The notes: generated by a model not told the origin, from the sequence alone. A DNA stretch of 64,000 nt from Candidatus Magasanikbacteria bacterium RIFOXYC2_FULL_42_28 (GCA_001784435.1 MFQZ01000005.1:25015-89014), one strand, 5' to 3'; numbered from the stretch's first letter, positions 10,839 to 35,100 are shown. Made by a program: numbers and translations.

Positions 10839-11657
10839 ATGTTTTACGCTATAATTTTAGGTATTGTCGAAGGCTTCACCGAATTTTTGCCAATTTCTTC
10901 TACTGGGCATATGATTTTGGTTGGGATGTGGCTCGGCACGGTTAATTCAGAATTTTGGAAAAGTTTTGAGATTGCGATTCAGCTCGGCGCAATTTTGGCC
11001 GTGGTCGTTTTATATTGGAAAAAAATTTGGGATGTAAAAAATGTTTGGCCGAAATTGTTGGTGGCGTTTTTGCCGACGGCGGTAATTGGGCTGGCGCTTT
11101 ATAAAATTGTTAAGCATTATTTATTGGGGAATGGTATGGTGGTGTTGGGGGCTTTGTTTATCGGCGGTGTCGTGATTATTTTGTTTGAGAGATATTATGA
11201 GAAAAAACACGCTTCGGAGGCAAATCAAACTTTAAGGGATTCCTCGACTTCGCTCGGAATGACAATTGATAGTTTTGAAAAAATTACTTATCGCCAAGCA
11301 TTTTACATCGGCCTATTTCAATCGATCGCGATTATCCCGGGCGTATCGCGCAGTGCGGCGACGATTATCGGTGGGCTCGCTTTAGGATTATCACGGCCGT
11401 TAATTATAGAATTTTCTTTTTTATTAGCCGTGCCAACTATGGCCGCGGCCACCGGACTGGATTTATTAAAAAGTGGCTTTAATTTTTCCGGCACAGAGTG
11501 GGGGATAATGGCTGTAGGATTTACCACTGCCTTTTTAACCGCTCTAGTTGCAATAAAATGGCTTTTGCGGTATATTACTAAGCACGACTTTACTATTTTT
11601 GGATGGTATAGGATCGCATTGGTCATGCTATGGCTAATTGTAATTTTAACTTTTTAA
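10839..11657 (+). CDS. uppP: Undecaprenyl-diphosphate phosphatase (with in-frame repeat insert)
   Basis: VEGFTEFLPISSTGH, IQLGAILAV, PGVSRSAAT. Confidence 0.95.
   Translation: MFYAIILGIVEGFTEFLPISSTGHMILVGMWLGTVNSEFWKSFEIAIQLGAILAVVVLYWKKIWDVKNVWPKLLVAFLPTAVIGLALYKIVKHYLLGNGMVVLGALFIGGVVIILFERYYEKKHASEANQTLRDSSTSLGMTIDSFEKITYRQAFYIGLFQSIAIIPGVSRSAATIIGGLALGLSRPLIIEFSFLLAVPTMAAATGLDLLKSGFNFSGTEWGIMAVGFTTAFLTALVAIKWLLRYITKHDFTIFGWYRIALVMLWLIVILTF
11231..11264. repeat. Family A right arm, in frame inside uppP
   Basis: TTTAAGGGATTCCTCGACTTCGCTCGGAATGACA encodes LRDSSTSLGMT; matches the intergenic copy at 53931. Confidence 0.9.
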
Positions 11658-11659
11658 AA

Positions 11660-11722
11660 ATCGAAGAATAAAGATTAAAGATTGAATTAAAAAAAATCTT
11701 TAATCTTAAATCTTTAATCTTT
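11660..11722. repeat. Palindromic element family D (AAGATT(A/G) / (T/C)AATCTT heptads)
   Basis: AAGAATAAAGATTAAAGATTGAA...AATCTTTAATCTTAAATCTTTAATCTT; related copy at 21737. Confidence 0.8.
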
Positions 11723-11727
11723 CACTT

Positions 11728-12957
11728 ATGAAACAATCCCAACTATTCACCAAAACCACCAAGCAAATTTCCAAAGAAGAAGTTAGCTTAAACGCGCAAC
11801 TTTTACAGCGCGCCGGATTTGTAGAAAAACTAATGGCGGGTGCCTATACCTATTCACCGCTCGGCCTTAGGGTATTACGAAAAATTGAAAATATCGTGCG
11901 TGAAGAAATGAATAAAATCGGCGGGCAGGAAGTTTTGATGCCGATGCTCCACCCTAAAGAAAATTGGGTGACTACCGGTGGTTGGGATAGCATTGACATT
12001 TTATTTAAAGTGCCAAGCCGAACCGAAAAAGAATATGCTTTGGGCCAAAGCGAAGAAGAAATCGTAACGCCATTTGTAATGAAGCGGGTGAATACCTACA
12101 GAGAATTACCACTTGCCGTCTATCAAATTCATTGGAAATTTCGTGATGAATTACGCGCTAAATCAGGGCTGTTGCGCGGCCGCGAATTTCTGATGAAAGA
12201 CATGTATAGTTTTAATGAAGATCAAGCTGATTTTGATAGATTTTATGCTATTGCTAAACAAGCATATTTGGCCATATTCAAACGAATGGGGCTGACTGCC
12301 AAAGTTACCGAGGCCTCCGGCGGATCATTTAGTGAAAAAATTTCTTACGAATTCATGGTTTTAACAGACGCGGGTGAGGACGATATTTTATATTGTAGTG
12401 ATTGTGACTTTTGCGTGAACGTCGAAATTTCTAAACAAAAAATCGGTGAGACATGCTCGCGTTGTAATAAAGGTAAAATGGAGCGCGCGACCGCATCTGA
12501 AGTAGGCAATGTCTTTGACTTGGGCCAAAAGTATGGCAAGGCCTTTGATTTGGGTTTTATAGGGCGCGATGGCAAGAAACAATTTCCAGTAATGGGTTGC
12601 TATGGAATCGGAATTTCGCGCGCTATGGGTGTAATCGTTGAAAAAAATAATGACGCCAAAGGTATAATCTGGCCAGCATCGGTCGCGCCGTTTCAATATC
12701 ATTTAATTTGTTTGGGCGATGATGCGGAAGTTAAAGCGACAGCCGATAAATTATATGCCGATATGACCGCTCAAGGCAAAGAGGTTTTATATGATGACCG
12801 AGCCGACACAGGCGCCGGCGCGAAATTCGCGGACGCGGATTTGATTGGATTGCCGACGCGGTTAGTGATTTCAGCCAAGACATTAAAAGAAAATGCGGTG
12901 GAGGTCAAAAATAGAAATGAAGAAAAGGCGGAGTTATTGCCATTAAGCCAATTTTAA
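11728..12957 (+). CDS. proS: Proline--tRNA ligase (short form without editing domain)
   Basis: KFRDELRAKSGLLRGREFLMKDMYSF, MGCYGIGISR, GAKFADADLIG. Confidence 0.95.
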   Translation: MKQSQLFTKTTKQISKEEVSLNAQLLQRAGFVEKLMAGAYTYSPLGLRVLRKIENIVREEMNKIGGQEVLMPMLHPKENWVTTGGWDSIDILFKVPSRTEKEYALGQSEEEIVTPFVMKRVNTYRELPLAVYQIHWKFRDELRAKSGLLRGREFLMKDMYSFNEDQADFDRFYAIAKQAYLAIFKRMGLTAKVTEASGGSFSEKISYEFMVLTDAGEDDILYCSDCDFCVNVEISKQKIGETCSRCNKGKMERATASEVGNVFDLGQKYGKAFDLGFIGRDGKKQFPVMGCYGIGISRAMGVIVEKNNDAKGIIWPASVAPFQYHLICLGDDAEVKATADKLYADMTAQGKEVLYDDRADTGAGAKFADADLIGLPTRLVISAKTLKENAVEVKNRNEEKAELLPLSQF

Positions 12958-13064
12958 TTTCAAATTTCCAATATCCAATGTCAAATCAATGTCAAAGCCA
13001 AAATATCAAATTTGATATTGGGATTTTGGATTTGGTTGGAAATTGGGAATTTTGATTTTGACAT
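12956..13064. repeat. Family B element (reverse orientation relative to 20841)
   Basis: Near reverse complement of 20841-20950. Confidence 0.9.
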
Positions 13065-13089
13065 GATTAATATTTACAGCAGCAAACAC

Positions 13090-13118
13090 TTGACAGGATT
13101 TTAATTATATCATACTAT
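13090..13118 (+). promoter_or_regulatory. Sigma70-type promoter
   Basis: TTGACA-17nt-TACTAT. Confidence 0.75.
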
Positions 13119-13146
13119 ATAAGTATAGATTGGAATAATAATCATT

Positions 13147-13725
13147 ATGCCCTACGAAATTGTCTTTGATATTGAGACCCAAAATACCTTTGCCGACGTC
13201 AATAACGACTTTAAAAAATTATTAATTTCCTGCGTTTCTATTTATCGTTCGGATACGGACAGTTACCACAGTTTTGAAGAGAAAGAACTAGGCCAGTTGT
13301 GGCCGATTTTGGAAAAATGTGATCGGTTAATCGGATTTAACAGCGGACATTTTGATATTCCGGTTTTAAATAATTATTATTCCGGCGATTTAAGTAAATT
13401 CCCGCATTTGGATATTATGGATTCGGTTAAGGAAGCGCTCGGGATTCGGCTTAAACTGGCCGACATCGCGGCCGCGACTTTGGATAATGTTACCAAAAGC
13501 GCCGATGGCTTGCAGGCGATTCGCTGGTGGAAAGAGGGAAAAATTGAGGAAATAAAAAAATATTGCGAGCAGGATGTGCGCGTGACGAAAGAATTATACG
13601 ATTTTGGATTAGCCAACAACCAATTATTTTACAAAAGTTTTAAAGGAGAAGTTTTGCCGTTTGCGGTAAATTTTAAACCTCCCGCCACTGTGGCACAGGC
13701 GATAAATTATACGTTACCATTTTGA
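13147..13725 (+). CDS. RNase H-like (DEDD/YprB-type) domain protein
   Basis: VFDIET, GFNSGHFDIP, KYCEQDV. Confidence 0.8.
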   Translation: MPYEIVFDIETQNTFADVNNDFKKLLISCVSIYRSDTDSYHSFEEKELGQLWPILEKCDRLIGFNSGHFDIPVLNNYYSGDLSKFPHLDIMDSVKEALGIRLKLADIAAATLDNVTKSADGLQAIRWWKEGKIEEIKKYCEQDVRVTKELYDFGLANNQLFYKSFKGEVLPFAVNFKPPATVAQAINYTLPF

Positions 13726-13726
13726 T

Positions 13727-14116
13727 ATGTTTTCTCTCCGCCGCGAAACCGACTATGCCCTGCGTTTATTAAAAACGCTTTCCACCGCGCCCAAAGGCCG
13801 CGCCAGTTTGATGACTGTTTCTAACCAAACCGGCATTTCATTTTTATTTTTACAAAAAATCGCCCGCAAATTACGGATCGCCGGGTTAATTAAATCTACC
13901 AAAGGTGTGAGCGGTGGTTATGAATTAAAAATCAAACCCAATAAATTAAGTTTAAAAAATATTATTTCGGTAGTGGAGGGTGGTTGTGCGCTGTGGTCGT
14001 GTTGCGAAGGTGGTGGCGGGTGCGCGCAGGAAAAATGCGGTATTCGTAAACGCGCGAAAACGGTTAATAAAAAAGTATTGAAATTTTTAACGGATGTGAA
14101 GTTGAGTGATTTTTAA
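13727..14116 (+). CDS. Rrf2 family transcriptional regulator (IscR-like)
   Basis: TDYALR, GVSGGYEL, C-terminal Cys cluster; upstream of iscS. Confidence 0.85.
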   Translation: MFSLRRETDYALRLLKTLSTAPKGRASLMTVSNQTGISFLFLQKIARKLRIAGLIKSTKGVSGGYELKIKPNKLSLKNIISVVEGGCALWSCCEGGGGCAQEKCGIRKRAKTVNKKVLKFLTDVKLSDF

Positions 14117-14118
14117 TT

Positions 14119-15363
14119 ATGCCCTTACCAAAACTTAAAAAAGTTCGCGACGTTTATCTTGACCATGCGGCCACGACTTATGTAATTCCCGCAGTGGCCA
14201 AAGCGATGGCGCCGTACATTGAAACCAATTACGCCAATCCGTCTTCTTTGTATAGATTAGGACGAATTAACAACGGCGCGATTAATGACGCGCGCCGAAC
14301 GATTGCCCAAGGCCTTGGCACAATGCCAGACACGATTGTGTTTACGGCTGGCGGAACAGAATCTGACAACCTGGCGATTTTTGGTGTCGCCAAGGCCAAC
14401 GCTGACCGAGGCAAGCATATTGTTTCTATTGGCATTGAACATCACGCTGTCCTGCATTCTTTGCGCGAATTAAAAAAAGACGGTTATGAAATTACTTTTG
14501 TGCCGGTGGATGGCGAAGGGATAGTTAAAGTAGAAGATATTGTCGCCGCGATTCGTCCGGACACAATTTTAATTACGGTAATGTTCGCCAACAACGAAGT
14601 GGGCACAATTGAACCGATTGCCGACATCGGCCGTGCTATTCTAAAATATCGTCAAACCAATAAAACTATTTACCCATATTTCCACTCAGACGCCTGCCAA
14701 GCGGCTGGCTATTTAGATTTAGATGTTGAGAAATTGCACGTTGATTTATTAACAATTAACGGTGGAAAAATTTACGGACCCAAAGGCGTTGGCGCACTAT
14801 ACATTCGTCGCGGGGTAAAAATTCGCCCGATGATTTGGGGCGGAGGACAGGAACGCGCTATGCGCTCGGGCACGGAAAATATTTCTGGCATAGTTGGTTT
14901 CGCTAAAGCATTTGAGTTGGCACAAACGTCTCGTGAAAAAGAGTGGAAACGCGTTTTGGAAATTGCTAAATATCTGTGGGAACGAGTACAAAAAGAAATT
15001 CCCAAAGTGCGCCTGAATGGGCCACCTTTTGGCGTTAATCGTTTGCCCAACAATGTCAATATTACTTTTATGGATGTGGAAGGCGAGGCGATGCTACTCT
15101 ATTTAGATGAATACGGCATTATGGCCTCAACCGGCTCAGCTTGCACCTCAACTTCCTTGGAACCATCGCACGTAATCACCGGCATGGGCTTACCTTACGA
15201 ATACGCCCACGGCTCAATGCGTTTCACCTTTGGCAAACGCAATACCAAAGCGGACGTAGATTATTTAATGAAAGTTTTTCCGGAAATTGTACGGGTACTG
15301 CGCGAAATTTCGCCAGTGGTGTTGGAAGAGGGAAAAAAGCACGCGAAGATTCATCAAAGATAA
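14119..15363 (+). CDS. iscS: Cysteine desulfurase
   Basis: YLDHAATT, GGTESDN, KIYGPKGVG, RSGTEN, STGSACTS. Confidence 0.9.
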   Translation: MPLPKLKKVRDVYLDHAATTYVIPAVAKAMAPYIETNYANPSSLYRLGRINNGAINDARRTIAQGLGTMPDTIVFTAGGTESDNLAIFGVAKANADRGKHIVSIGIEHHAVLHSLRELKKDGYEITFVPVDGEGIVKVEDIVAAIRPDTILITVMFANNEVGTIEPIADIGRAILKYRQTNKTIYPYFHSDACQAAGYLDLDVEKLHVDLLTINGGKIYGPKGVGALYIRRGVKIRPMIWGGGQERAMRSGTENISGIVGFAKAFELAQTSREKEWKRVLEIAKYLWERVQKEIPKVRLNGPPFGVNRLPNNVNITFMDVEGEAMLLYLDEYGIMASTGSACTSTSLEPSHVITGMGLPYEYAHGSMRFTFGKRNTKADVDYLMKVFPEIVRVLREISPVVLEEGKKHAKIHQR

Positions 15364-15372
15364 AATTCACAT

Positions 15373-15470
15373 TGTCATTCCGACGACGAAGGAGGAATCT
15401 CTATCCCGTTAGTGATTTTACAGCCAAATGGAGATCTCCCGTCGGATGCGAATCCTCGCTCGGGATGACA
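15373..15470. repeat. Family A element between iscS and iscU
   Basis: TGTCATTCCGACGACGAAGGAGGAATCTC...CTCGCTCGGGATGACA. Confidence 0.9.
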
Positions 15471-15498
15471 AATGAATTGTTTAATTAATTAAAATATT

Positions 15499-16209
15499 AT
15501 GCCTACCAAAACAAAATCCAAAATAAAAATCACCAACAAAAAAGTGGTCCAAAAGAAAAATTTAAAAGAAGAAGTGGATGTGCGCACGCCCGATGGTGGC
15601 GGTTGGCTTTATTCTGATATTGTCAAAGACCACTTTTTTAATCCCCGCAATTTTATGCAATATGGGGAAGAAGAAAAGTTCAAATTTAATGGTATCGGGC
15701 GTGTCGGCAGTCCGGCTTGTGGCGATGAAATGGTTTTGTGGGTGCAAATTGATCCGAAAACTGAAAAAATCAGTCAGTGCCGTTGGCGCACCTTTGGTTG
15801 TGGCAGTGCAATTGCTTCCACGAGCGCATTGTCGGAAATGATTGTAGAAAATAGCGGAATGAAAATTGATGAGGCGTTAAAATTAAAACCACAAAATATT
15901 TTGGAGCGTTTGGGTGGTTTGCCTAACCGCAAAGTTCACTGCTCGGTGTTGGGTGACAAGGCCTTACAGTCGGCGATCAACGACTTTTTTCGTAATACCG
16001 CCCAACACAGCCGCGTTCAAACCGCTGGCGCGAAAGTAATTGATAAAGAATTAAATGTTACCGACCACGATATTGAAGAGGCGGTTTTGGAAGGCGCGCA
16101 AAATTTGGAGGACTTACAACATAAATTAAAAGTGGGGGTATTTAATAAAGAAGTAATCCCGCAATTGGAAGATTTACTTCGCTTTTACAATGAAAAATAT
16201 TATGGCTAA
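15499..16209 (+). CDS. iscU: Fe-S scaffold IscU/NifU-N with a Cys-less BFD-like C-terminal domain
   Basis: DHFFNPRN, GSPACGD, FGCGSAIAS, LPNRKVHCS. Confidence 0.85.
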   Translation: MPTKTKSKIKITNKKVVQKKNLKEEVDVRTPDGGGWLYSDIVKDHFFNPRNFMQYGEEEKFKFNGIGRVGSPACGDEMVLWVQIDPKTEKISQCRWRTFGCGSAIASTSALSEMIVENSGMKIDEALKLKPQNILERLGGLPNRKVHCSVLGDKALQSAINDFFRNTAQHSRVQTAGAKVIDKELNVTDHDIEEAVLEGAQNLEDLQHKLKVGVFNKEVIPQLEDLLRFYNEKYYG

Positions 16210-16525
16210 AAATATTGTACGTGTCTGTTGCGGTATGACCTGTGGTATTACCGGCTCCAGAAAAATAATGTCAAAATTAGAAGAATCAATGGGCTTAAAA
16301 GCCGGCGAACAGAACGAAGAAAATGACCTGGGTTTTTGCGGTTGCACGGGTTATTGCCATATGGCGCCCAATGTCGTGATTAATGATAACGAAATCCACC
16401 ATGTTAACCCTGATACCGTGACCAAGGATGTAGAGGAAGAAAAAAAGAAACCAGCCGGTTCGGAAAAACCGCCCGAAGCCACGGCCGAGGAAATTATGAA
16501 TTTGGATTTTTTGGGGGACCTTTAA
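16202..16525 (+). CDS. Thioredoxin-like [2Fe-2S] ferredoxin (NuoE-like)
   Basis: VRVCCGMTC...CTGYCHMAPNVVIN. Confidence 0.8.
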   Translation: MAKNIVRVCCGMTCGITGSRKIMSKLEESMGLKAGEQNEENDLGFCGCTGYCHMAPNVVINDNEIHHVNPDTVTKDVEEEKKKPAGSEKPPEATAEEIMNLDFLGDL

Positions 16526-16559
16526 TTTTAAATTTCAGATTTATAATCTCAGAATTGCG

Positions 16560-16590
16560 AACCTCAGCCTTCACTGGCTGAGGTTTTATT
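16560..16590 (+). terminator. Terminator of the isc operon
   Basis: AACCTCAGCC-TTCACT-GGCTGAGGTT-TTATT. Confidence 0.8.
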
Positions 16591-16633
16591 ATGATTATTT
16601 GCTTTTTAGCTTTCTTTTTGCTAAAATATACCC

Positions 16634-17395
16634 ATGGAAAAAGGCAAATTATACATCGTCGCCACGCCCATTGGGAATTTGGACGACATTACTTTACGCG
16701 CTTTAGCGACTTTAAAGAGCGTTGATTTTATTTTGTGCGAAGATACGCGCGTGACGAAAAATTTATTAGACCGGTATGAGATTGTGAAACCGACGATTTC
16801 GTATCATCAACATAGCGACGCGCGCAAGACCAAAGAAATTATTGAATTGTTAGAAAACGGTAAAAATTTGGCGTTAGTAACGGACGCGGGCACGCCGGGA
16901 ATTTCTGATCCGGGGAATTTGTTGATTGCCACCCTACTGTCATTTCGAACCCACGCAGTGGGTGAGAAATCTCCATCCCGTTCGCCCAACGACAATGGAG
17001 ATTCCTCGTCGCTTCGCTCGCTCGGAATGACAAATGACGACAAAGTACAAATTGTCCCCATTCCTGGCCCCTGCGCCGCTATCGCCGCCCTCTCTATTTC
17101 CGGCTTCCCAACTGACAAATATTTTTTCATGGGATTTCCGCCCCATAAAAATAAACGGCATAAATTTTTTCAAGAAGTTGCCACTGCCAAATACACTGTC
17201 GTATTTTACGAATCCGGCCATCGTATTACCAAATGCCTGACTGAATTACAAAAATTTTTAAAACCGGAACAAAAAATAATTATCGCCCGCGAACTTACCA
17301 AAAAATTTGAAACAATTTATCGCGGTACGGCTGGTGATATTGGTAATATGCAGGTGGAAGAACGAGGGGAGTTTACCGTGATAATTTCTAATTAA
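16634..17395 (+). CDS. rsmI: 16S rRNA C1402 2'-O-methyltransferase (with in-frame repeat insert)
   Basis: LYIVATPIGNL, CEDTR, DAGTPGISDPG, ARELTKKFE. Confidence 0.95.
   Translation: MEKGKLYIVATPIGNLDDITLRALATLKSVDFILCEDTRVTKNLLDRYEIVKPTISYHQHSDARKTKEIIELLENGKNLALVTDAGTPGISDPGNLLIATLLSFRTHAVGEKSPSRSPNDNGDSSSLRSLGMTNDDKVQIVPIPGPCAAIAALSISGFPTDKYFFMGFPPHKNKRHKFFQEVATAKYTVVFYESGHRITKCLTELQKFLKPEQKIIIARELTKKFETIYRGTAGDIGNMQVEERGEFTVIISN
16938..17032. repeat. Complete family A element in frame inside rsmI
   Basis: TGTCATTTCGAACC...GAGAAATCTCCAT...ATGGAGATTCCTCG...CTCGGAATGACA encodes LSFRTH...SLGMT. Confidence 0.95.
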
Positions 17396-17492
17396 CTAAT
17401 TCACTAATTTCTAATAAAATACTAAATTCAAAAGATACTTAAAGCATTGGTAATTTTATTAGTTAATTAGCGAATTAGGCCTTAGCGAATTT
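17390..17492. repeat. Palindromic element family C (CTAATT / AATTAG periodic)
   Basis: Reverse complement closely matches 63290-63390. Confidence 0.85.
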
Positions 17493-17504
17493 TAAAATAT
17501 TTTT

Positions 17505-19046
17505 ATGTCACAAAAGCAAAAATATTACCTCACCACCGCCATACCCTACGCCAATGCCGACCCGCACATCGGCTTTGCTTTGGAATTATTATACACCGAC
17601 ATCATGGCACGCTACCAACGTTTGCTTGGCAAAGACGTATATTTTTTAACCGGCACGGACGAACACGGCCAAAAAATGTACCGCACAGCTACGGCGCTGG
17701 GCGTAAAAGTGGAAGATTTTGCCGCGGAAAAATCCGCGCGATATTTAAAATTAGCCGACGAATGGAATGTTACTAATAACGATTTTATCCGTACAACCGA
17801 ACCGCGCCACGAGCAAAGCGTACAAAAATTTTGGAACGCATCGTTGAAATCCGGTGATATTTACAAAAAATCTTATACCGGATTATATTGCACCGGCTGT
17901 GAATCATTTAAAACCGAAAAAGATTTGGTAGACGGCAAATGTAGCGACCACAATAAAGAACCGGAGGAATTATCCGAAGAAAATTATTTTTTTCGCTTAT
18001 CAAAATATCAAGAACCCTTAAAATTTTTATTTGAGGAAGCCAATCCGGATTTTGTTTACCCCCCCAGTCGCGGTAAAGAAATGTATAATATTTTGAAAAA
18101 CGGATTAGACGATATTAGTATTTCTCGATCCAAAGAAAAATTAACTTGGGGAGTGCCGGTGCCTGACGACGACACGCAGGTGATGTATGTTTGGTTTGAC
18201 GCGCTTACCAATTATATTACGGCCTTAGGGTGGGGGAGCGACGACGAAACTTTATTCAAAAAATACTGGCCGGCAGACGCGCATGTAATTGGCAAAGAAA
18301 TTAATCGCTTCCATAGTTTACTTTGGCCGGCGATGTTAATGTCAGCCGGTGTGGAATTGCCCAAACAAATCGCGGTGCATGGTTGGATGACGGTGGACGG
18401 ACAAAAAATGAGCAAAACTATCGGCAATGTCATTGACCCGTTAAAATTAATTGAACAATATCCGTTAGAAGCGGTGCGTTATTTTTTGGCGCGCGAAATT
18501 CCGTTTAATAATGATGGTGATTTTTCCGATACCAAATTCCGCGACCGCTATGCCGGCGACTTGGCTAATGGTTTGGGAAATTTTACCAGTCGAGTATTAT
18601 CAATGATTGAAAAATATGCCGAGGGGGTCGTGCCGAAAGTGGAAAATATAAATACTGATTTAAATAAGTATTTAAATCATGATATCTGGCCGGCTTATAC
18701 GAGCGCGATGGATAAATGGGATTTTTGCACCGCTCTCACCATTACCAATAAATTTATCACCCATTGCGACCAGATGATTTCCGATCAGCAACCATGGGCA
18801 ATGGCGAAAGCGGGTAAAATGACCGAGGTAAGTGATTTACTCTACCATTTGGCCGAGGCCTTACGCCACATCGCGATTATGATTTGGCCGGTGATGCCGG
18901 AGACATCAGAAAAAATTATCACGCAATTGGGATTAGATACCGCGATTGAATTTGCGAAACCGCTTGACGAATTAAATCAATGGGTGGATTTAACCGTTGG
19001 TAATAAAATTAACAAGGGGGAAATTTTATTTCCTCGTTTAACATAA
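17505..19046 (+). CDS. metG: Methionine--tRNA ligase
   Basis: PHIG (HIGH), TGTDEHGQK, YVWFDAL, KMSKT. Confidence 0.95.
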   Translation: MSQKQKYYLTTAIPYANADPHIGFALELLYTDIMARYQRLLGKDVYFLTGTDEHGQKMYRTATALGVKVEDFAAEKSARYLKLADEWNVTNNDFIRTTEPRHEQSVQKFWNASLKSGDIYKKSYTGLYCTGCESFKTEKDLVDGKCSDHNKEPEELSEENYFFRLSKYQEPLKFLFEEANPDFVYPPSRGKEMYNILKNGLDDISISRSKEKLTWGVPVPDDDTQVMYVWFDALTNYITALGWGSDDETLFKKYWPADAHVIGKEINRFHSLLWPAMLMSAGVELPKQIAVHGWMTVDGQKMSKTIGNVIDPLKLIEQYPLEAVRYFLAREIPFNNDGDFSDTKFRDRYAGDLANGLGNFTSRVLSMIEKYAEGVVPKVENINTDLNKYLNHDIWPAYTSAMDKWDFCTALTITNKFITHCDQMISDQQPWAMAKAGKMTEVSDLLYHLAEALRHIAIMIWPVMPETSEKIITQLGLDTAIEFAKPLDELNQWVDLTVGNKINKGEILFPRLT

Positions 19047-19055
19047 TTTTGTCAT

Positions 19056-19580
19056 ATGCCATATTTTGACATTGGTCTTATTATCATAATCGGAATTTTT
19101 GGATTAATTGGCCTTGCTTTTGGCCTTGTCCAGACCCTAGGCTCTCTATTGGGCATGATCTTGGGCGTATTTATTGCGGCGCGTTACTACGAGGTCGGCG
19201 CCGAGTGGATTACGAGTTTTACCGGCTGGGGAGGGAATTTCCCCAAAGTACTTATTTTTATCATTGCTTTTGTCATCATAAACCGATTAGTTGGTTTGGT
19301 ATTTTGGCTGATCAATAAAATACTTTCTATCGTAACCAGACTCCCATTTATTTCCAGCATCAATCGTCTTTTGGGGTTGGTGTTCGGAGTATTAGAGGGT
19401 GCCATCGGCCTCGGCATTATTTTATATTTTGTCGCCCGTTTTCCACTTGGAGAAACTTTTATGGGTGCGCTCGGTGCGAGCAGAATCGTGCCAATACTCG
19501 TGCATATGGCCGGAGTGTTAATGCCACTTGTACCGGAGGGCTTGCGAATTTTGCAAAGTACGATTGAGAGTTTGAGGTAA
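19056..19580 (+). CDS. CvpA family membrane protein
   Basis: DIGLIII N-terminus, NRLLGLVFGVLEG. Confidence 0.85.
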   Translation: MPYFDIGLIIIIGIFGLIGLAFGLVQTLGSLLGMILGVFIAARYYEVGAEWITSFTGWGGNFPKVLIFIIAFVIINRLVGLVFWLINKILSIVTRLPFISSINRLLGLVFGVLEGAIGLGIILYFVARFPLGETFMGALGASRIVPILVHMAGVLMPLVPEGLRILQSTIESLR

Positions 19581-19582
19581 TT

Positions 19583-20515
19583 ATGATTATTGACACGCAC
19601 TGCCATATTCAATTTCGTGGTTATGATAACGACCGCGCCGAGGTTATTAAACGTTGTCGCGAAAAAGACGTAATAATGAACGCCGTCGGCACGCAAATTG
19701 ATACTAGTCGCGCCGCCGTGGAGTTGGCCGAAGCCAATCCGGATATTTACGCTACCATTGGTTTGCACCCCATTCATTTATTTACGACACGCGTGGACGA
19801 AGAAGAATCATCTTTCTTAAGTCGCGAAGAAAATTTTGATTACGACGCGTATAAAAAATTAGGGCAAAGCGAAAAAGTAATCGCAGTGGGGGAGTGCGGT
19901 TTGGAATTATTTCATATTCCGCCCGAAGCCGACCGGGAAGCGATTTTAAAAAAACAAAAAAACGTTTTTTTGTTACAAGTTAAACTGGCCCAAGAATTAA
20001 ATGTACCACTAGTCATCCATGTCAGAGATGCCTATGACGAGATGCTGGAATTGCTATTGTCATTGCGAGGAGCGCAGCGACGCGGCAATCCCACCGTTAA
20101 ATTGCCACCCTACGGGTGGTCTGCCGTAGGCATGACTTCGCCTTTGGCTCGCAATGACATTAAAGGCGTCGTCCACTGCTATTCCGGCAACTGGCGCCTG
20201 GCGCAAGGATTTTTGGACTTGGGATTATATTTAGGGTTTACTGGTGTGATCACTTTTCCACCCCGCAAAACCAACCCACAATCAACTTTGGATTTGCTGG
20301 AAGTCGTCAAAAATGCTCCACTGGATAGAATTTTAATAGAAACTGACTCACCCTATTTAGCCCCTCAAGCATATCGTGGTCAAAGAGCCGAACCGTGGAT
20401 GGCTATTGAAAATTTGCGTAAAATCGCGGAGATTAAAGGATTGGATATGGCCGAAGTAACTGAAGCTGTCTTAAATAACACAAAAAAAATATTTACAAAA
20501 ATCAAAAACTGTTAA
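19583..20515 (+). CDS. tatD: TatD family hydrolase (with in-frame repeat insert)
   Basis: IDTHCH, GLHP, AVGECGL, IHVRDA, VHCYSG, IETDSPYL. Confidence 0.95.
   Translation: MIIDTHCHIQFRGYDNDRAEVIKRCREKDVIMNAVGTQIDTSRAAVELAEANPDIYATIGLHPIHLFTTRVDEEESSFLSREENFDYDAYKKLGQSEKVIAVGECGLELFHIPPEADREAILKKQKNVFLLQVKLAQELNVPLVIHVRDAYDEMLELLLSLRGAQRRGNPTVKLPPYGWSAVGMTSPLARNDIKGVVHCYSGNWRLAQGFLDLGLYLGFTGVITFPPRKTNPQSTLDLLEVVKNAPLDRILIETDSPYLAPQAYRGQRAEPWMAIENLRKIAEIKGLDMAEVTEAVLNNTKKIFTKIKNC
20058..20159. repeat. Family A element (TTGCGAG subtype), 102 bp, in frame inside tatD
   Basis: TGTCATTGCGAGGAGCGCAGCGACGCGGCAATC...CTCGCAATGACA encodes LSLRGAQRRGNP...PLARND. Confidence 0.95.
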
Positions 20516-20592: not shown

Positions 20593-20841
20593 ATGGAAAA
20601 TAAGCCAAAAACAAGCGACCGCGCTTATTATCTCTTTGCTTTGCGCATAGTTGGCGATTTTGGCGCATCCATTGCCGTGCCGGCGGTTTTAGCCGCTTTG
20701 GTTGGCAATTGGATTGATGAAAAATTTAGCACCTATCCGTTATTTGTCGCGTTATTTTTACTTGTCGCTGGTTTACTGACAGCTAAATCCATAATGAAAA
20801 AGGCGAAAAAATACGGAGAAGAATACGACCAATTAAAATAA
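20593..20841 (+). CDS. AtpZ/AtpI family protein
   Basis: Two TM segments, GNWIDEKFSTYP motif, first gene of the atp operon. Confidence 0.85.
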   Translation: MENKPKTSDRAYYLFALRIVGDFGASIAVPAVLAALVGNWIDEKFSTYPLFVALFLLVAGLLTAKSIMKKAKKYGEEYDQLK

Positions 20842-20950
20842 TTTCAAAATCCAAATTTCCAATTTCCAATCAAATCCAAAATCCCAATATCAAATTTGAC
20901 ATTTTGGCTTTGACATTTATTTGACATTGGATATTGAAAATTTGACATTT
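20841..20950. repeat. Family B element between atpZ and atpB
   Basis: Heptad palindrome containing four TTGACA hexamers. Confidence 0.9.
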
Positions 20951-20959: not shown

Positions 20960-21736
20960 ATGCATATTCCAACATTAGCACCGGAAATACTATTTTATCT
21001 ATACGGCTGGCCGATAACCAATACTATTATCAACGCCTGGCTCGCGATACTGATTTTTTTGGCGCTGGGAATTTTTATCAAACGAACGATTAAACTCCGC
21101 CCGGGCACTTTGCAAAATGGCGCGGAATATTTTTTAGAAATTTTATTGGGATATTTTGACCAAGTGACCGGCGACCGCAAACGCACTCTGAAATTTTTAC
21201 CAATTGTCGGTTCGGTCTTCTTTTTTATTTTACTTTCTAACTGGCTCGGTCTGATTCCCGGCACCGGCAGTATCACTTATAAGCACGAATTTTTATTGCG
21301 TCCGGCCAACACGGATTTAAATTTGACAGTGGCAATGGCGCTCGTGGCCGTGGTGTCTTCGCATTTGTTTGGTTTGTTTACCGTCGGAATTTTCACGCAT
21401 TTAAATAAATTTATTCAAATTGGCACGTTTTTTAAAAGTTTAACGAAAGGCCCAGTGGCTATTCTCACCGCGATAATTGAATTGGGTGTGGGATTGATTG
21501 AGATAGTATCGGAAATTGCTAAAGTGGTTTCATTGTCCTTGCGGTTATTTGGAAATATTTTTGCCGGCGAAGTTTTGATGACGGTAATGGCGAGCTTAGT
21601 TGGGCTATTATTACCGACACCATTTATGTTATTGGAGTTATTGGTCGGATTAATTCAAGCCGCGGTATTTACGATGTTAACGCTGGTTTATTTGACCGTG
21701 GCGACGACCGATCCGCACGCCGAAGAAGCGCACTAA
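20960..21736 (+). CDS. atpB: ATP synthase Fo subunit a
   Basis: SNWLGLIPG, SLSLRLFGNIFAGE, IQAAVF; start reassigned to MHIPTL. Confidence 0.95.
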   Translation: MHIPTLAPEILFYLYGWPITNTIINAWLAILIFLALGIFIKRTIKLRPGTLQNGAEYFLEILLGYFDQVTGDRKRTLKFLPIVGSVFFFILLSNWLGLIPGTGSITYKHEFLLRPANTDLNLTVAMALVAVVSSHLFGLFTVGIFTHLNKFIQIGTFFKSLTKGPVAILTAIIELGVGLIEIVSEIAKVVSLSLRLFGNIFAGEVLMTVMASLVGLLLPTPFMLLELLVGLIQAAVFTMLTLVYLTVATTDPHAEEAH

Positions 21737-21815
21737 AAATTGAAGACTGAAGATTGAAGATTAAAAAAAATACTTACACCAATCTTCAATCTTCGATCTT
21801 TAATTTATAAATTTC
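21737..21815. repeat. Family D element between atpB and atpE
   Basis: GAAGACTGAAGATTGAAGATT...AATCTTCAATCTTCGATCTT. Confidence 0.8.
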
Positions 21816-21883: not shown

Positions 21884-22105
21884 ATGGAACACGAATCAAT
21901 CGTGGCGATGTCAAAAGCATTCGCTATGGCAGTGGGTGGCATGTTTCCGGCGTTGGCCATTGGCCGACTGGTAGCAAAGGCCATGGAGTCAATCGGACGC
22001 AACCCAGAATCAGCTGGTAAGTTGTTTGTCCCGATGTTGCTCGGCGCCGCGTTTGCCGAAGCGATTGCGATTTACTCGCTGGTGGTCGTATTTACTCTCA
22101 AGTAA
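21884..22105 (+). CDS. atpE: ATP synthase Fo subunit c
   Basis: IGRNPES loop, AFAEAIAIY with the essential Glu. Confidence 0.95.
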   Translation: MEHESIVAMSKAFAMAVGGMFPALAIGRLVAKAMESIGRNPESAGKLFVPMLLGAAFAEAIAIYSLVVVFTLK

Positions 22106-22156: not shown

Positions 22157-22266
22157 AATTTCAAAATCCAAATTTCCAATTTCCAATCAAATCCAAAATC
22201 CCAATTACAAATTTGACATTTTGGCTTTGACATTGATTTGACATTGGAAATTGGAAATTTAACATT
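22157..22266. repeat. Family B element between atpE and atpF
   Basis: Near-identical to 20841-20950, same orientation. Confidence 0.9.
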
Positions 22267-24733: not shown

Positions 24734-24855
24734 TGTCATTCCGAACGAATGTGAGGAATCTCCATCCCAATCACAAACCGAATGGAGATCCCTCGCTCGC
24801 CTTGGCGAAGCCTATCGGCGAAGCCAGGTCGACGCGAGTCTCGCTCGGGATGACA
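24734..24855. repeat. Family A element with nested extra hairpins between atpA and atpG
   Basis: TGTCATTCCGAACGAATGTGAGGAATCTCCAT...ATGGAGATCCCTCG...CTCGGGATGACA. Confidence 0.9.
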
Positions 24856-30037: not shown

Positions 30038-30127
30038 GCCGTATAAAATGTAACATTTCCCCATATTTTACGTCTACTACCATATAACCCCCCCATTTGG
30101 GGGCAATTTGCGTATTTTGGGATATTT

Positions 30128-31900
30128 ATGAAAACGGAATTAAAAAATTACACTAAAACGACTTTAAAAATATACTGGAAATTTACCAAAAAATATCCGG
30201 TGCTTTTGACGTTGATGATTTTAGGCGTAGTAGTTGGCGCCGCCACAAACGCTATTATCCCGCTTTACTTCAAGCGGTTGTTTGATGCTTTAACCACCCT
30301 ACCGCAAAATTTGGAATCAGCCGCATTTCTGGTTGAGATTCTAATACTTATCGCTATTGTTGAATTGATACATTGGTTTGCCTGGCGCGTTTCCGAATTT
30401 TCCGCTTCGCTGTCTGTCTCCAGAATTATTAAAGAATTATCCGACTACTGTTTTGCTTACTTGCACAAACACTCTTTAACTTTTTTTAACAATAACTTCG
30501 GGGGCTCTTTGACCAAGCGCGTTAATCGCTTTTCTCGATCTTACGAATCTATCACCGACCGCGTTCAATACGATTATATCCCTTTGGTTGTCAATGTAAT
30601 TTTAATAGTGGCAATTTTGATGGCGCGTAATGTCTATATTGGTCTGGGAATGATGCTGTGGGTGCTAATATTCACCACCATCAATATAATCTTCAGCCGT
30701 TACAAATTGCCATATGATCTGGAACGCAGTAACGCCGACACGGCCACCACCGGCATTTTGGCCGACACTATTACCAACCACAATAACGTTAAATTGTTTG
30801 GTGGATATGAAAGGGAAATAAAAAACTATGGGCACGCGACGGATAAATTACGCCGCCTACGTTTATTAACCTGGATAATGGGTTCGGGATTTTTCGCCTT
30901 CCAAGGACTATTCATTACGGCACTCGAAATCGCTTTATTTTACTTCGCCATCAAACTTTGGGTAATGGGGCAATTTACCATCGGTGATTTTGTTCTTATT
31001 CAATCATATATTATTATCGTTATCGGCAAGGTGTGGGATTTCGGCCGCGTGATTCAGCGCACTTACGAAGATTTGAGCGATGCCAATGAAATGACGGAGA
31101 TTTTAGAAACACCACACGAAATTGCTGACATTCCCGGAGCCAAAATGATAAAAATAAAAAATGGAGAAATTAAATTTGACAATGTTAAATTTTGCTACAA
31201 CGAAACGCGAACGGTGTTGGATAAATTTAATTTAACCGTAACGCCGCAAGAAAAAATCGCATTGGTTGGCCCTTCGGGCGCTGGAAAATCCACCATCGTG
31301 CGTTTAATTTTACGCCAGCACGAATTAACCGCCGGAAAAATTTTAATTGATGACCAGCCCATTGAAAAAATCACTTTGGAAAGCTTATGGAGCGCGGTGT
31401 CGCTGGTGCCACAAGACCCGATTTTATTTCACCGCACTTTGGCGGAAAATATCAGCTACGGCAAACCGAATGCCACCAAAGCCGAGATTGCGAAAGCGGC
31501 AAAATTGGCGCATTGTGATGAATTTATCAAGGACTTGTCCAAGGGCTACGACACTTATGTGGGCGAACGCGGGGTCAAATTATCTGGTGGCGAACGCCAG
31601 CGCGTGGCCATCGCGCGCGCTATTTTGCACAACGCGCCGATATTGGTGTTGGATGAAGCCACTTCCAGTTTAGATTCGGAATCCGAACGCTTGATTCAAG
31701 ATGCTCTTGGCAAATTGATTGAGGGAAAAACCGTGATAGTGGTGGCGCACCGCTTGTCCACGATTATGAAGATGGACCGCATTATCGTAATTGATGCCGG
31801 TAAAATCGCGGAGCAGGGGAGCCACAGCGAGCTTCTCAAAAAACCAAATGGTCTTTATCGGAAATTATGGCAGGTGCAAGCGGGAGGGTTTATTGGGTAA
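30128..31900 (+). CDS. ABC exporter, fused permease and ATPase (MsbA/MdlB type)
   Basis: N-terminal TM domain, GPSGAGKST, LSGGERQR, LDEATS. Confidence 0.95.
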   Translation: MKTELKNYTKTTLKIYWKFTKKYPVLLTLMILGVVVGAATNAIIPLYFKRLFDALTTLPQNLESAAFLVEILILIAIVELIHWFAWRVSEFSASLSVSRIIKELSDYCFAYLHKHSLTFFNNNFGGSLTKRVNRFSRSYESITDRVQYDYIPLVVNVILIVAILMARNVYIGLGMMLWVLIFTTINIIFSRYKLPYDLERSNADTATTGILADTITNHNNVKLFGGYEREIKNYGHATDKLRRLRLLTWIMGSGFFAFQGLFITALEIALFYFAIKLWVMGQFTIGDFVLIQSYIIIVIGKVWDFGRVIQRTYEDLSDANEMTEILETPHEIADIPGAKMIKIKNGEIKFDNVKFCYNETRTVLDKFNLTVTPQEKIALVGPSGAGKSTIVRLILRQHELTAGKILIDDQPIEKITLESLWSAVSLVPQDPILFHRTLAENISYGKPNATKAEIAKAAKLAHCDEFIKDLSKGYDTYVGERGVKLSGGERQRVAIARAILHNAPILVLDEATSSLDSESERLIQDALGKLIEGKTVIVVAHRLSTIMKMDRIIVIDAGKIAEQGSHSELLKKPNGLYRKLWQVQAGGFIG

Positions 31901-31913
31901 AGGCAGGGCGATT

Positions 31914-32040
31914 TGTCATTGCAAGCGAAGCGATCTCTCGTCAATTGTCATTTCGAATCCCCGTCGCAGGGGTGAGAAATCTCTGTCTTAAATAATTTTA
32001 CTAACCGGACAGAGATTCCTTCTTCGTCGTCGGAATGACA
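31914..32040. repeat. Family A: truncated TTGC-subtype arm (31914-31938) plus complete element (31946-32040)
   Basis: TGTCATTGCAAGCGAAGCG..., then TGTCATTTCGAATC...GAGAAATCTCTGTC...GACAGAGATTCC...TCGGAATGACA. Confidence 0.9.
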
Positions 32041-32047
32041 ACAAAAT

Positions 32048-32081
32048 AAAAATATCACGAAATTAATCGTGATATTTTTTT
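32048..32081 (+). terminator. Terminator-like hairpin of the recurring ATATCACGA/TCGTGATAT type
   Basis: AAAAATATCACGA-AATTAA-TCGTGATATTTTTTT. Confidence 0.7.
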
Positions 32082-32154
32082 ACCAATGGTTACCACATAG
32101 CACATTTTTGCCTTTTTGTCAATGGTGAGATATAATACCTGTCATTAACAAAAT

Positions 32155-35100
32155 ATGCTTAATAATACCCTCAACCCCGCCCAACTCGAAGCCATAAAAC
32201 ACACCACCGGCCCACTTTTGATTGTCGCCGGGGCTGGTACTGGCAAAACTACCGTGATTGCGGAAAAAATCGCTTATCTTGTTAATACCCAAAAAATTCC
32301 AGCCAAAAATATTTTAGCTGTTACTTTTACCGAAAAAGCCACTGCCGAGATGTCCGACCGCGTGAGCGCCTTATTGCCGGACGGGGGATTGGACGCGACG
32401 GTTTGCACCTTTCATTCTTTGGGACGTAGAATTTTGGAAACGCATGGATTGGAAGTGGGGTTGCCGAATAATTTTAAAGTGTTAAACGATATTGAAGCGT
32501 GGTTGCTTGTACGCCAAAATTTAGAAAGATTTAATTTGGATTATTATCGACCGCTGGGTAATCCGGCAAAATTTATTCACGCGCTTTTAAAACATTTTGG
32601 CCGGTGTAAAGATGAGTTGATTACACCGGAGAAATATTTAGCGCATGCGGAAAATTTACAGTTGGATGGAGATTCCTCGTCGCTCCCGCTCGCTCGGAAT
32701 GACAATGACGGTGAAAGCGATGCGCTTATCCAAAAACGCACAGCCGAACTATCCTCGGCTTACCACTTGTATAATCAAATCTTATTAGAAAACGACTGCT
32801 TGGATTTTTCCGATTTAATTTTCTATACAGTTAAACTTTTACGCGAACGGCCAAATATTTTAAAAATTTATCAAAACATTTGGCCGAATATTTTGGTAGA
32901 TGAATTTCAAGACACCAACTGGGCACAATATGAATTAATAAAATTATTGGCCAAAGGGCGCGAAGATACGGTTGGCCTAACGGTGGTAGGTGATGATGAC
33001 CAAAGTATTTATAAATTCCGCGGTGCTAGCGTCGCCAATATTTTACAATTTTCAACTGACTTTCCAAAATCCAAACAAGTGGTGCTGACCGAAAATTACC
33101 GCTCTGGCCAAACAATTTTGGACTATGCGCATAATTTTATTACCTTAAATAATCCGGACCGACTGGAAGCAAAATTAGGGTTAGATAAAAAATTAATTTC
33201 CGCTACTAAAAAATTTGCCACCGTAGAATTTAGCAATCCAACGAGTGCTAGTGCTGAGGGTGAGGAGATTGCCAAAAATATTCTGGCACTAAAAAAGAAA
33301 AACGATTTGGGGTGGTCGGACTTCGCCGTTTTATGTCGCACCCACCAGATCGTTGACCAAATTTTGCCATCTTTAACCAGTCGCGGTATCCCAACGGTAA
33401 GCGCGGGCGCATCCGGTTATTTACGCACTGGCGCGGCCTTAAACTGCTTGGCGGCTTTTAAATTGGCGGATAATTATCACGAATCACCGGCCGTCTATCG
33501 CTTATTAAATTCCGTGATTTACGATTTACCTTATGAAGACGCGTCTAAATTGGCATTGTTTGTTAAAAGAAAATCAGTATCACTTTACCAAGCGGTTAAA
33601 GCCGGAGTAAATGGAGAAATAAAATTAAGTACCGCTGGACAAATTTGCACTGCTAAATTTTTGGCCGATACTGCTAAATTATCCGTGGACGCTAAAACCG
33701 AACCGGCAATTAAGGTGTTGTATAATTTCTTAGAAAATTCCGGTTATTTAAAAAAGTTGGCGGACGCGCCGGAAAAAAATTATCGCGATATTATGGCTTT
33801 GCAAGCGCTGTTTGATTATTTGGAAAAATTCCAAAGTGATAATCCGGATACAGGCGTCGGCGCGTGGCTTAAATATTATGAATACGCGCTGGAGGCCGGG
33901 GAAACAGGGGAGGCCGAAGCCGATAGCGCCGATGGCGTGCCAGTTTTGACTATCCACAGCGCCAAGGGACTGGAATTTGAATATGTCTTTATTCCGTCAC
34001 TCGTGGATTTGCGTTTTCCAGCGGTGAATCGTTCGGAAGCGATTGAATTGCCGAGCGAATTAGTTAATGAAAAAGTTTTGCCAGAAGACGACGCGCATTT
34101 GGAAGAAGAGCGACGTTTGTTTTATGTGGCACTAACACGCGCCAAAAGCGGGGTATTTTTATCCGGCGCCAAGGACTACGGCGGGGCGCGCGAGAAAAAA
34201 TTATCACGATTTGTTTCCGAATTGGAAAAAACGAATAAGGTAAAATTGAACGACCACTCCCTCACCCCCTCCTCCGAGAGGCGGGGGAAGGCGACGATTT
34301 CCCCTCCTGCCCGAGGAGGGGACGAAGGGGCGGTAAGAGCAATTACCACCCCTCAAACATTTTCCTTTTCTCAGATCTCAACCTACCAATCCTGCCCCTG
34401 GCAATATCGCTATAAATTCATTTTGCATATTCCCACTTTGGGCAAAGGCGTGTTTAGTTTTGGCCACACCTTGCATCTTACCTTACAAAAATTTTACGAA
34501 CGACTAATCGCGTTAAATTCCGCGCGCCAAGGCGAACTGTTCGACGCGCCTCACATTTCTCCCCCTGCCCGAGGGGGAGACGAAGAGGGGGTGGGAGCAA
34601 TCACAGTTGCCAGTTTAGAAGAACTACTGGAATTATATCGCGCTAACTGGCAAGATGATTGGTTTTATAGTGCGGAAAATAAAGCCCGCTACCGTGCCGA
34701 AGGGGAAACAATCTTAAAAAACTTTTACGCAATAAACACAAAAGCCGGCTGGACAATACCGCTGGGTTTAGAAACCGGTTTTCGATTTAAAGTGGCTGGC
34801 GCTGATTTCAAAGGTCAAATTGATCGCATTGACCGCCAAGCCGATGGAAAAATCCGCTTAATTGACTACAAAACCGGCCGACCAAAAACTACGCTTACTT
34901 TTAACGATAAATTACAGTTATTAGTTTACCAATGGGCCGCCACGAGTATTTCGGCGTTAGCTCAAATGGGGGAAATCGGCACACTTTCGTATTTTTATTT
35001 AAATGATGGCACCGAGATGGATTTTATCGGCGCAGAAAAAGATTTAGCCAAAACCGCTGCGACTGTGGAAGAAATAATTAAAAAAATTCAAGCGCGCGAT

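Follow-up and report, generated by a model that had tools for sequence, protein, structure and literature searches.

Palindromic elements inserted in frame in genes have been considered most typical of Rickettsia, and REPIN/RAYT systems consist of GTAG REPs together with a Y1 transposase. RPE-1 is described as having a length of about 150 bp and a single conserved peptide (Ogata et al. 2000, 2002, as cited in PMC10969869 and PMC3733652). The CGTC-REP families CGTC-1 to -4 include RPE-6 and RPE-4 of R. conorii and dRS3 of Neisseria, and the survey which defined this grouping already reported CGTC repeats inside genes and left their mover open (Di Nocera, De Gregorio & Rocco 2013, PMC3733652). 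Its supplement 3 has at least 27 rows for R. conorii, including QueA, UvrC and RsmA (PMC3733652). Chenal et al. (PMC11893778) showed strand-specific cleavage of single-stranded DNA upstream of the NTS repeat and modulation of transformation by SsnA/NTS in N. meningitidis, and raised the mobilisation by Ssn of its own repeats only as a hypothesis; CPR and Patescibacteria have 0 mentions in that paper.

The DNA analyzed here is a 64-kb window (the whole stretch, 64,000 nt) of a CPR genome with Candidatus Magasanikbacteria as its closest named relatives, in agreement with the host that had been proposed. The original prediction was of an independent RPE-like system. In-frame palindromic inserts in variable loops, with RPE-like behaviour, were indeed found, but the independence has to be given up since the CGTC/TGTC tag and the ATyyC stem are those of the CGTC REPs of Di Nocera (R. 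conorii RPE-4/RPE-6, Neisseria dRS3), and relatives encode the R. conorii intragenic CGTC-1 peptides VIPAKAGI, CHSRESGNP, DSRFRGND and SFPRKRES. The explanation we favour, with a probability of roughly 0.7, is that these hairpin repeats occupy about 37 housekeeping genes without breaking the frame, would be tolerated there as floppy loops, and that Ssn-type nucleases move them.

In-frame inserts in four genes of the window

Two of the four genes carry a single hairpin. The uppP gene (10839-11657) has a TGTC-type insert at 11231..11264 (+ strand), made up of a unit at 11238-11264 plus a head extension and corresponding to residues about 131-142, and the UvrD-helicase/PD-(D/E)XK gene (32155-35172) has an in-frame insert at 32664..32704 (+ strand, residues about 171-184). 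Tails-out doublets, which carry no strand assignment, were found in rsmI (16634-17395) at 16938..17032, with units at 16939-16971 and 17000-17031, and in tatD (19583-20515) at 20058..20159, where the left unit lies at 20059-20090 and the right arm is degenerate. Although the coordinates, peptides and open frames predicted for the four elements were confirmed, the full TGTCA...TGACA pair expected in each was present only in rsmI and tatD; the inserts in uppP and UvrD are each a lone right-hand hairpin with the left arm absent.

All four host ORFs are uninterrupted, and their families were recognised by NCBIfam/Pfam (UppP, RsmI and TatD over cut-offs; UvrD/PcrA plus PD-(D/E)XK). TatD retains its invariant residues (H6, H8, E104, H146, H198 and D255). 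Comparison with orthologues revealed that the loops are short, of ancestral length, in relatives and that each of the four is a true in-frame insert placed in a variable loop. Leaving out relatives with unparsed motifs, the RsmI motif spacing was 59 aa here vs 27-30 aa in 19/22 relatives that parsed, the TatD spacing 56 aa vs 28 aa in a genome of the same genus (G001), and the UppP segment 58 aa vs 41-48 aa in 5 relatives. In UvrD the segment measured 61 aa vs 46-52 aa in 9/11 relatives. The net gain is 10-17 aa in UppP, about 13 aa in UvrD, 30 aa in RsmI (between helix 93-103 and strand 139-143) and 28 aa in TatD (between helix 151-166 and strand 195-198). The uppP site is filled in G001 too. 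Mapped on AlphaFold models, the TatD and RsmI inserts are low-confidence helix-strand loops: in TatD (pLDDT 92.5; TM 0.88-0.91 by target length against TatD crystal structures) the dip is confined to blocks 161-190, and in RsmI it lies at 109-133. As judged from sequence and models, the inserts are likely translated as floppy surface loops.

This is a metagenome assembly containing repeats, with identical patches common to G001, and either assembly artefacts or pseudogenes could be suspected. A Logan contig of run X1 covers 16500-20086 with 0 differences over the whole rsmI insert; X1 is possibly the source sample, and this contig is a separate assembly and not independent data. A contig of X2, from another study, bridges the right junction of the same insert with 0 differences, and no insert was covered by runs X4 and X8. 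Outside the inserts, pN/pS against G001 was 0.24 in host genes (n=33) and 0.26 in other genes (n=623; p=0.25), and host genes are under normal purifying selection. Pfam matches were obtained in 31/34 scanned hosts. Further hosts include ValRS, ArgRS, CysRS, PheT, SecA, PolA, PGK, MnmA, TsaD and TsaE. Most hosts have no second copy; of those named here only ValRS gave a second match, a distant one (24-27%). As inserts also recur in many other genomes, artefacts or pseudogenes are highly improbable, and we are confident that the inserts are real, presumably translated, and tolerated.

The repeat unit and its distribution in the genome

The unit combines a TGTC tag with a 5-bp stem (ATyyC/GrrAT), an interior rich in purines and a head specific to the family, and often occurs as a tails-out doublet. 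The element is thus a single hairpin, frequently doubled, and not a fixed TIR element. A loose search returned 175 units in the 1.147-Mb genome vs 7-20 in 5 shuffles; with the first base of the tag left free, TGTC was found in 163 of these and CGTC in 5. A pattern without any pairing requirement gave 156 matches vs 0 for the reversed control. Conservation is at the DNA level, as had been claimed, and 152/156 stems are perfect ATyyC/GrrAT pairs of four co-varying types. Interiors open and close with GA in 87/156 units, Watson-Crick pairing continues beyond the stem in about 36/156, and a CAGTCG head is present in 4/156. GNA/GNRA loops lie exclusively on the tag-first strand in 40 vs 8 distinct interiors.

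All 40 oriented doublets in this genome are tails-out (0 tails-in), and a doublet folds as a long hairpin (z -3 to -8). With Watson-Crick DNA rules, single units showed no folding advantage over shuffles (z 0.5, 1.4), and a G.A fold of the unit is for this reason an assumption. Target duplication was not clearly above shuffled pairs in 90 doublets (k=2-8, three offsets; lowest tail 49/500), a test in which old insertions could have lost the duplication, and stem extension into host flanks was below the shuffled expectation. Doublet length gave no multiple-of-three signal (genic 2/11, intergenic 8/24) because junction bases are replaced.

Six intergenic sites had been predicted in the window and all are real. 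Five are doublets, at 2287..2375, 15373..15470, 24734..24855 (between atpA and atpG), 31946-32040 (with a degenerate unit at 31914-31940, the whole spanning 31914..32040) and 57433..57507 (a near-perfect long hairpin), but that at 53931..53973 (+ strand) is a single unit and not a pair. Genome-wide, 156 units, left from 159 once three that looked like chance matches had been dropped, fall at 108 loci, 43 of which are in frame in 37 called genes; in G001, 30/121 loci are genic. Locus density was 4.2 per 100 kb in coding vs 52.6 in non-coding DNA, i.e. 12.5-fold lower per base in genes. Split genes were found at 0/65 non-genic loci here and apparently at 2/91 candidate loci in G001, one of which is accounted for by tandem paralogues. 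Single units make up 30/43 genic loci, and their enrichment in genes gave no consistent signal (p=0.047 here, p=1.0 in G001).

The right arm had been said never to be read in the third frame, which was taken as filtering for stop-free frames. Genic right arms are in phases 1 or 2 in 23/23 cases, but as evidence this is circular because every unit has TGA in its third phase (0/86 non-genic units are open there) and an open ORF could not show it. The filtering is upheld instead by the genic depletion and the lack of split genes. Genic copies are read in five phases and yield unrelated peptides. A preference for the Val-Ile frame was dropped, as the counts were 22/5/6 in this genome but 9/7/7 in G001, and no other frame is open so often. 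Two further, unrelated repeat families also lie in frame in genes here, and with the TGTC units they occupy 58 of 1,088 called genes (about 5% of proteins).

The long hairpins formed by doublets might allow the RNA to lose the inserts or translation to skip them, leaving proteins of normal length. Most genic loci, however, are single units which barely fold, the frame is open in every genic copy, which would be unneeded if the insert were removed, and the junctions have lost host bases to replacement, which means that excision would not restore the ancestral loop. Di Nocera et al. (PMC3733652) also refer to RPE-1-bearing Rickettsia proteins being expressed in vivo. We consider RNA-level removal very improbable and treat the repeats as probably translated and tolerated.

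Ssn-like nuclease genes and the spread of the repeats

A small GIY-YIG gene at 2450..2698 (- strand) lies 75 nt from the 2287 doublet. It was rejected as the Ssn and is probably not one, because its product shows only 29% identity to the Neisseria protein flanked by NTS, and units lie on one side only. Outside the window, two Ssn-like GIY-YIG genes of this genome (G000:C9:33624-33920 and G000:C10:91094-91390, both - strand) have units on both sides, and their proteins share 52% and 42% identity with a GIY-YIG protein of Neisseria that has 6 flanking NTS copies and that we took as SsnA from its context. Among 28 loci examined, two-sided flanking of ssn-like genes was seen in 9 genomes; around some ssn-like genes no unit lay closer than 400 nt. 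Class-wide, a count in which kin are not independent, an Ssn-like gene was found in 38/51 genomes with at least 20 units vs 12/66 with three or fewer. A Y1 transposase/RAYT as mover was ruled out, with 0 PF01797 matches in this 97%-complete genome.

Translated and tolerated repeats might also spread without Ssn catalysis, through recombination and conversion or another enzyme, with ssn genes sharing or exploiting the motif. The published SRM consensus fits 6/158 units, and these variants may thus not be Ssn substrates; the NTS consensus gave 2 copies with one mismatch and 1 with 3. An Ssn-like match is absent in 13/51 repeat-rich genomes, interspecies recombination patches are frequent, and several shared sites (uppP, Mur ligase, RsmA) have the same tails but another interior, which resembles conversion. 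Against this, units closely flank the ssn-like genes of the 9 genomes, repeat load follows the presence of Ssn (median 13 vs 3 units), conversion alone would be unable to seed new sites and the Y1 transposase is lacking. Spread without Ssn is in our judgement unlikely, and the odds that Ssn itself moves the repeats are about even.

With Ssn as mover, the tag-first strand would fold as single-stranded DNA with sheared G.A pairs and GNA loops, and Ssn would bind the folded unit and nick a few bases outside the tag, like SsnA in Neisseria. Repair with a repeat-bearing strand might then place one unit or a doublet at a new site, in many cases overwriting a few host bases, and insertions would persist only where the frame is open and the fold tolerant. 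Independent events would as a result be funnelled into the same few loops.

Recurrence in the same loops and relation to known systems

Among 46 TatD orthologues (rows 1-46 of the 100 aligned) the loop is occupied by TGTC doublets in 5 cases and by another hairpin family in 3 (8/46 filled). Five changes on the TatD tree are needed for the five TGTC carriers, and a single clade was rejected (p-AU 0.0003). The RsmI loop has different doublets in G016 and G018 and a heptamer array, not ancestral sequence, in G001; the UvrD loop of G001 holds a different doublet, of CGTC-1 type, in the same place. These repeated independent hits in TatD, RsmI and UvrD loops point to selection on loop tolerance, not targeting. 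A narrow pattern with a unit just before TatD GxxHC matched 2/400 other genomes of the phylum, neither unit-like, and the one inspected was due to chance; the TatD recurrence is therefore shown for this family only.

Exact DNA runs of at least 60 nt common to this genome and G001 number 262, indicating that alleles move between the two (or that the assemblies cross-talk) and that G001 is not a clean outgroup. Identical inserts in ValRS and TsaD were rejected as proof of long conservation or homing because they lie within near-identical patches found genome-wide, most of which are far from units. The same observation bears on the proposal that genic copies are selected, either as Ssn targets tuning ssDNA uptake or recombination at essential genes or as loops with a gained function. 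The effect of SsnA/NTS on transformation (PMC11893778), the larger genic share here than in Neisseria and the fact that about 21/38 hosts act on tRNA, rRNA or DNA would fit such selection. It is opposed by the depletion in coding DNA, the rapid turnover with unrelated families replacing one another in the same loops, and the unrelated peptides from five phases, and is improbable. We retain the reading of tolerated loops.

More broadly, and with considerable doubt, we put forward that Ssn nucleases may be the missing mobiliser of CGTC REPs and RPEs in repeat-rich Patescibacteria, acting by nick-and-overwrite with no target duplication and, together with two unrelated families, repeatedly altering the same permissive loops in about 5% of proteins. 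If so, these genomes would serve as a naturally replicated map of sites that tolerate insertion, and would steadily supply new peptide loops. The two unit-flanked Ssn-like genes and matching units make the mover of CGTC repeats directly testable in vitro. CPR protein alignments and trees include repeat-derived segments and call for caution. No earlier report of in-frame CGTC-superfamily repeats in Patescibacteria was found in the literature searched.

Classical MITEs differ in that no target-site duplication was found here. REPIN/RAYT systems are alike in their tagged hairpins and inverted doublets flanking a small cognate nuclease gene, but have another tag, and here PF01797 is lacking and the flanked gene encodes a GIY-YIG protein. 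With RPE-1 to -3, as far as the sources consulted describe them, the present elements share in-frame palindromes at fold-compatible sites of unrelated housekeeping proteins in a reduced genome; they differ in their length of 24-120 bp and their five reading phases. The rsmI and tatD insert peptides had no NCBIfam match at E<=10 in a library which presumably contains RPE models, and with no single conserved peptide, identity with RPE-1 to -3 was rejected. NTS/Ssn (Chenal et al. 2025, PMC11893778) shares the repeat-ssn-repeat layout, proteins of about 95 aa and strand asymmetry, but the genic share is 2% for NTS in N. meningitidis and 40% of loci in this genome, and most units here are outside the SRM consensus.

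The CGTC REPs share the CGTC/TGTC tag, an AT-opening stem, mostly outward doublets with no transposase nearby and in-frame copies in DNA-repair and tRNA genes. QueA, UvrC and RsmA are hit both here and in R. conorii, and identical peptides occur in G001 and G018. The host phylum is outside the five listed for CGTC repeats, in which orthologues are hit at different sites except recB (PMC3733652), whereas the same loops recur here. The form of CGTC-1 to -4 (8-9-bp stem, 4-5-nt loop, CCA tail) is found in a minority of units; most have a 5-bp stem and a GA...GA interior that can reach 54 nt, with TCTGTC, TCCATC or CCTTAA heads. The unit is for these reasons a TGTC-tagged member of the CGTC-REP/NTS superfamily and mostly not of a named CGTC family, and this genome and its relatives place the same superfamily in Patescibacteria with a genic load equal to or higher than that in Rickettsia.

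In-frame inserts in four genes of the window

The host genome, Candidatus Magasanikbacteria bacterium RIFOXYC2_FULL_42_28 (G000), is 1.147 Mb and 97%-complete, with Candidatus Magasanikbacteria as its closest named relatives; the window corresponds to G000:C5:25015-89014. Genetic code 11 applies, since its long genes terminate with TAA, TAG and TGA alike. The four ORFs were identified as UppP, RsmI, TatD and a UvrD helicase with a PD-(D/E)XK domain. The original prediction had located the inserts correctly (uppP 11231-11264, rsmI 16938-17032, tatD 20058-20159, uvrD 32666-32704), and the reading frames run uninterrupted through them as it had stated. The TGTCA...TGACA pair that it described in all four genes was found in rsmI and tatD, while uppP and uvrD each contain a single right-hand hairpin.

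Alignment with orthologues, proposed at the time as a check, revealed shorter loops in relatives at all four sites. The RsmI motif spacing was 59 aa vs 27-30 aa in 19 of the 22 relatives parsed, the TatD spacing 56 aa vs 28 in the same-genus relative G001, the UppP segment 58 aa vs 41-48 in five relatives and the UvrD segment 61 aa vs 46-52 in 9 of 11 relatives. TatD retained every invariant metal-site column (100-row alignment), and the pN/pS of carrier genes against G001, insert excluded, was 0.24 (n=33) compared to 0.26 for 623 other genes. Mapping on structure models, also suggested earlier, placed the TatD and RsmI inserts in a low-confidence segment between a helix and a strand. The TatD AlphaFold model, which resembles TatD crystal structures, had a pLDDT of 92.5 and was confident except for blocks 161-190, located between helix 151-166 and strand 195-198. 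The RsmI model was of low confidence only at ~101-140. This segment connects helix 93-103 to strand 139-143, and its counterpart in solved RsmI is four residues long. A separately assembled contig from sequencing run X1, possibly the source sample, spanned the rsmI insert with 0 differences, a contig from another study's run (X2) bridged its right junction, and the tatD insert was covered by two contigs with a 26-base overlap. We infer that the inserts are translated. The feature is genuine, with good support, and of a kind already known.

The repeat unit and its load in genes

Each unit consists of TGTC, a 5-bp ATyyC stem, a 9-54-nt interior, GrrATC and a subfamily head (TCTGTC, TCCATC, CCTTAA or others). 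A loose pattern search of the whole host genome returned 175 units, and five shuffles returned 7-20; the filtered census contained 156 units at 108 loci. Doublets were tails-out in 40 cases and tails-in in 0. The stems fell into four co-varying types with perfect pairing in 152/156 units, and GA was present at both the start and end of the interior in 87/156. Forty distinct interiors had GNA/GNRA loop motifs on the tag-first strand alone, and 8 had them on the other strand alone. Sheared G.A pairs are a motif class, and we infer that the units adopt a strand-specific ssDNA fold containing them. Standard DNA folding supported the doublets (z -3 to -8) and gave no support for a fold in two single units.

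Using genes from our own gene caller (1,088 genes, 89% coding), 43 of the 108 loci lay within 37 genes, a density of 4.2 per 100 kb in coding vs 52.6 in non-coding DNA. Two of the genic copies are N-terminal and probably reflect mis-called gene starts. Of 34 further carriers scanned, 31 received a Pfam name; among them were MnmA, ArgRS, ValRS, CysRS, PheT, QueA, Tgt, MiaA, TsaD, TsaE, TruB, RsmA, PGK, UvrA, UvrC, PolA, MutM, SecA, YchF and two Mur ligases. By a raw count, the products of approximately 21 of the 38 carriers work on tRNA, rRNA or DNA, and the list contains no gene for a ribosomal protein, RNA polymerase or ATP synthase. None of the 65 non-genic loci split a gene. In G001 the sole unexplained candidate among 91 loci was a unit at G001:C19:9403-9426, in what could be a gene that is split or mis-called. 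Filtering had been argued from the third frame never being used, a circular argument because the third phase carries TGA in every unit (0/86 open). The non-circular evidence for filtering is the depletion in genes together with the absence of broken genes.

Recurrence in the same loops and other repeat families

TGTC doublets of differing sequence occupied the loop in 5 of 46 TatD orthologues, and hairpins of another family did so in 3 (G017, L208 and L214). In a TatD tree made without the insert the carriers were scattered, four of them having strongly supported empty sisters or clade-mates; the five TGTC carriers needed five changes and a single clade was rejected (p-AU 0.0003). Searching 400 further genomes from the phylum with a narrow TatD pattern produced no genuine match, so this recurrence is shown for this family only. 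Other doublets occupied the RsmI loop in relatives G016 and G018, and another the UvrD loop in G001. When 46 host sites were compared with G001, 11 were also filled, 23 were shorter, 10 lacked a unit at equal length and 2 were without an orthologue, these labels including some alignment-edge cases. The two genomes have a median protein identity of 74% and have 262 exact DNA runs of 60-797 nt in common, grouped in multi-kb patches (e.g., C1:283267-286172, C7:5068-13044, C9:50388-54331), the product of either recent interspecies recombination or cross-assembly; their near-identical ValRS and TsaD inserts therefore reflect allele exchange or cross-assembly.

The second family in the TatD loop, CCCCTC-loop-GAGGGG hairpins giving SPPARGG peptides, is unrelated to the TGTC units and also in frame. 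Strict hairpins of this family were genic in 20/27 cases, in 18 host genes, 6 of which also hold a TGTC unit. Window copies lie at 34297-34346 and 34555-34604 (uvrD) and at 55549-55588 (within the grpE ORF, 55315-55905). A third family comprises AT-rich palindromes of degenerate heptamers, found in the window at 2704-2812, 11653-11734, 12956-13065, 17387-17498, 20840-20949, 21736-21811, 22157-22266 and 63283-63384; 13/47 such arrays in the host lie within ORFs. A short ATP synthase subunit c-like ORF (~21884-22105, + strand) between atpB and atpF, below our 90 aa ORF cut-off, is bracketed by two AT-rich palindromes. The G001 RsmI loop is itself a heptamer array, and since this sits at the ancestral loop length it suggests overwriting rather than insertion. 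By hand count, a repeat from one or other of the three families is present in ~58 of the 1,088 genes.

A candidate mover and relation to CGTC REPs

No Y1 transposase was found in the host genome. Two small genes (G000:C9:33624-33920 and C10:91094-91390) among its five GIY-YIG matches have units on both sides. Their proteins share 52% and 42% identity with a Neisseria protein that we take to be SsnA, of the GIY-YIG ssDNA nucleases (Ssn), and that has six copies of the repeat NTS around it. The window's GIY-YIG gene, at 29% identity to that protein, was set aside. Another small GIY-YIG gene (L003, G000:C4:14683-15043) has a tRNA-like gene on one side and, on the other, a partial duplicate of that gene's 5' end. 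Units were present on both sides of a GIY-YIG gene in 9 genomes, among 28 loci examined. At locus L130 (G018:C29) the ssn-like gene (6075-6356) is preceded by an array of at least 7 units, spaced ~39 nt apart, and followed by 4 more. Across 200 genomes of the class, 51 had at least 20 units and none reached the host's 156; Ssn-like genes were detected in 38 of these 51 vs 12 of 66 with three or fewer, kin not being independent.

Chenal et al. 2025 (PMC11893778) show that SsnA cleavage is confined to the tag-first ssDNA strand, at a position a few bases upstream, and mention mobilisation by Ssn as a possibility that they do not test. By analogy, an Ssn nick on tag-first ssDNA followed by repair would move units to new sites, a route to which we give about even odds. 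There was no target duplication in 90 doublets, and ~18 host bases were replaced at the TatD insertion site. The SRM (Ssn-related motif) consensus of that paper fits just 6/158 units, which counts against the nick-and-repair route.

The system had been proposed to be independent, which was not borne out. Di Nocera et al. 2013 (PMC3733652) already define CGTC REPs, note a TGTC variant, equate R. conorii RPE-6 with CGTC-1 and RPE-4 with CGTC-4, and describe copies in frame within repair and tRNA genes, the R. conorii in-frame peptides being identical to those of G001 and G018. The host units belong to the CGTC REP superfamily, and the rules on stem and loop place most of them outside its four named families. 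A search of the literature outside subscription journals turned up no paper on such repeats in Patescibacteria. Our analysis extends the known kind to a new phylum and adds a high load in genes, divergent subtypes rich in GA, a link to Ssn that can be tested, and the repeated occupation of the same loops by as many as three repeat families.
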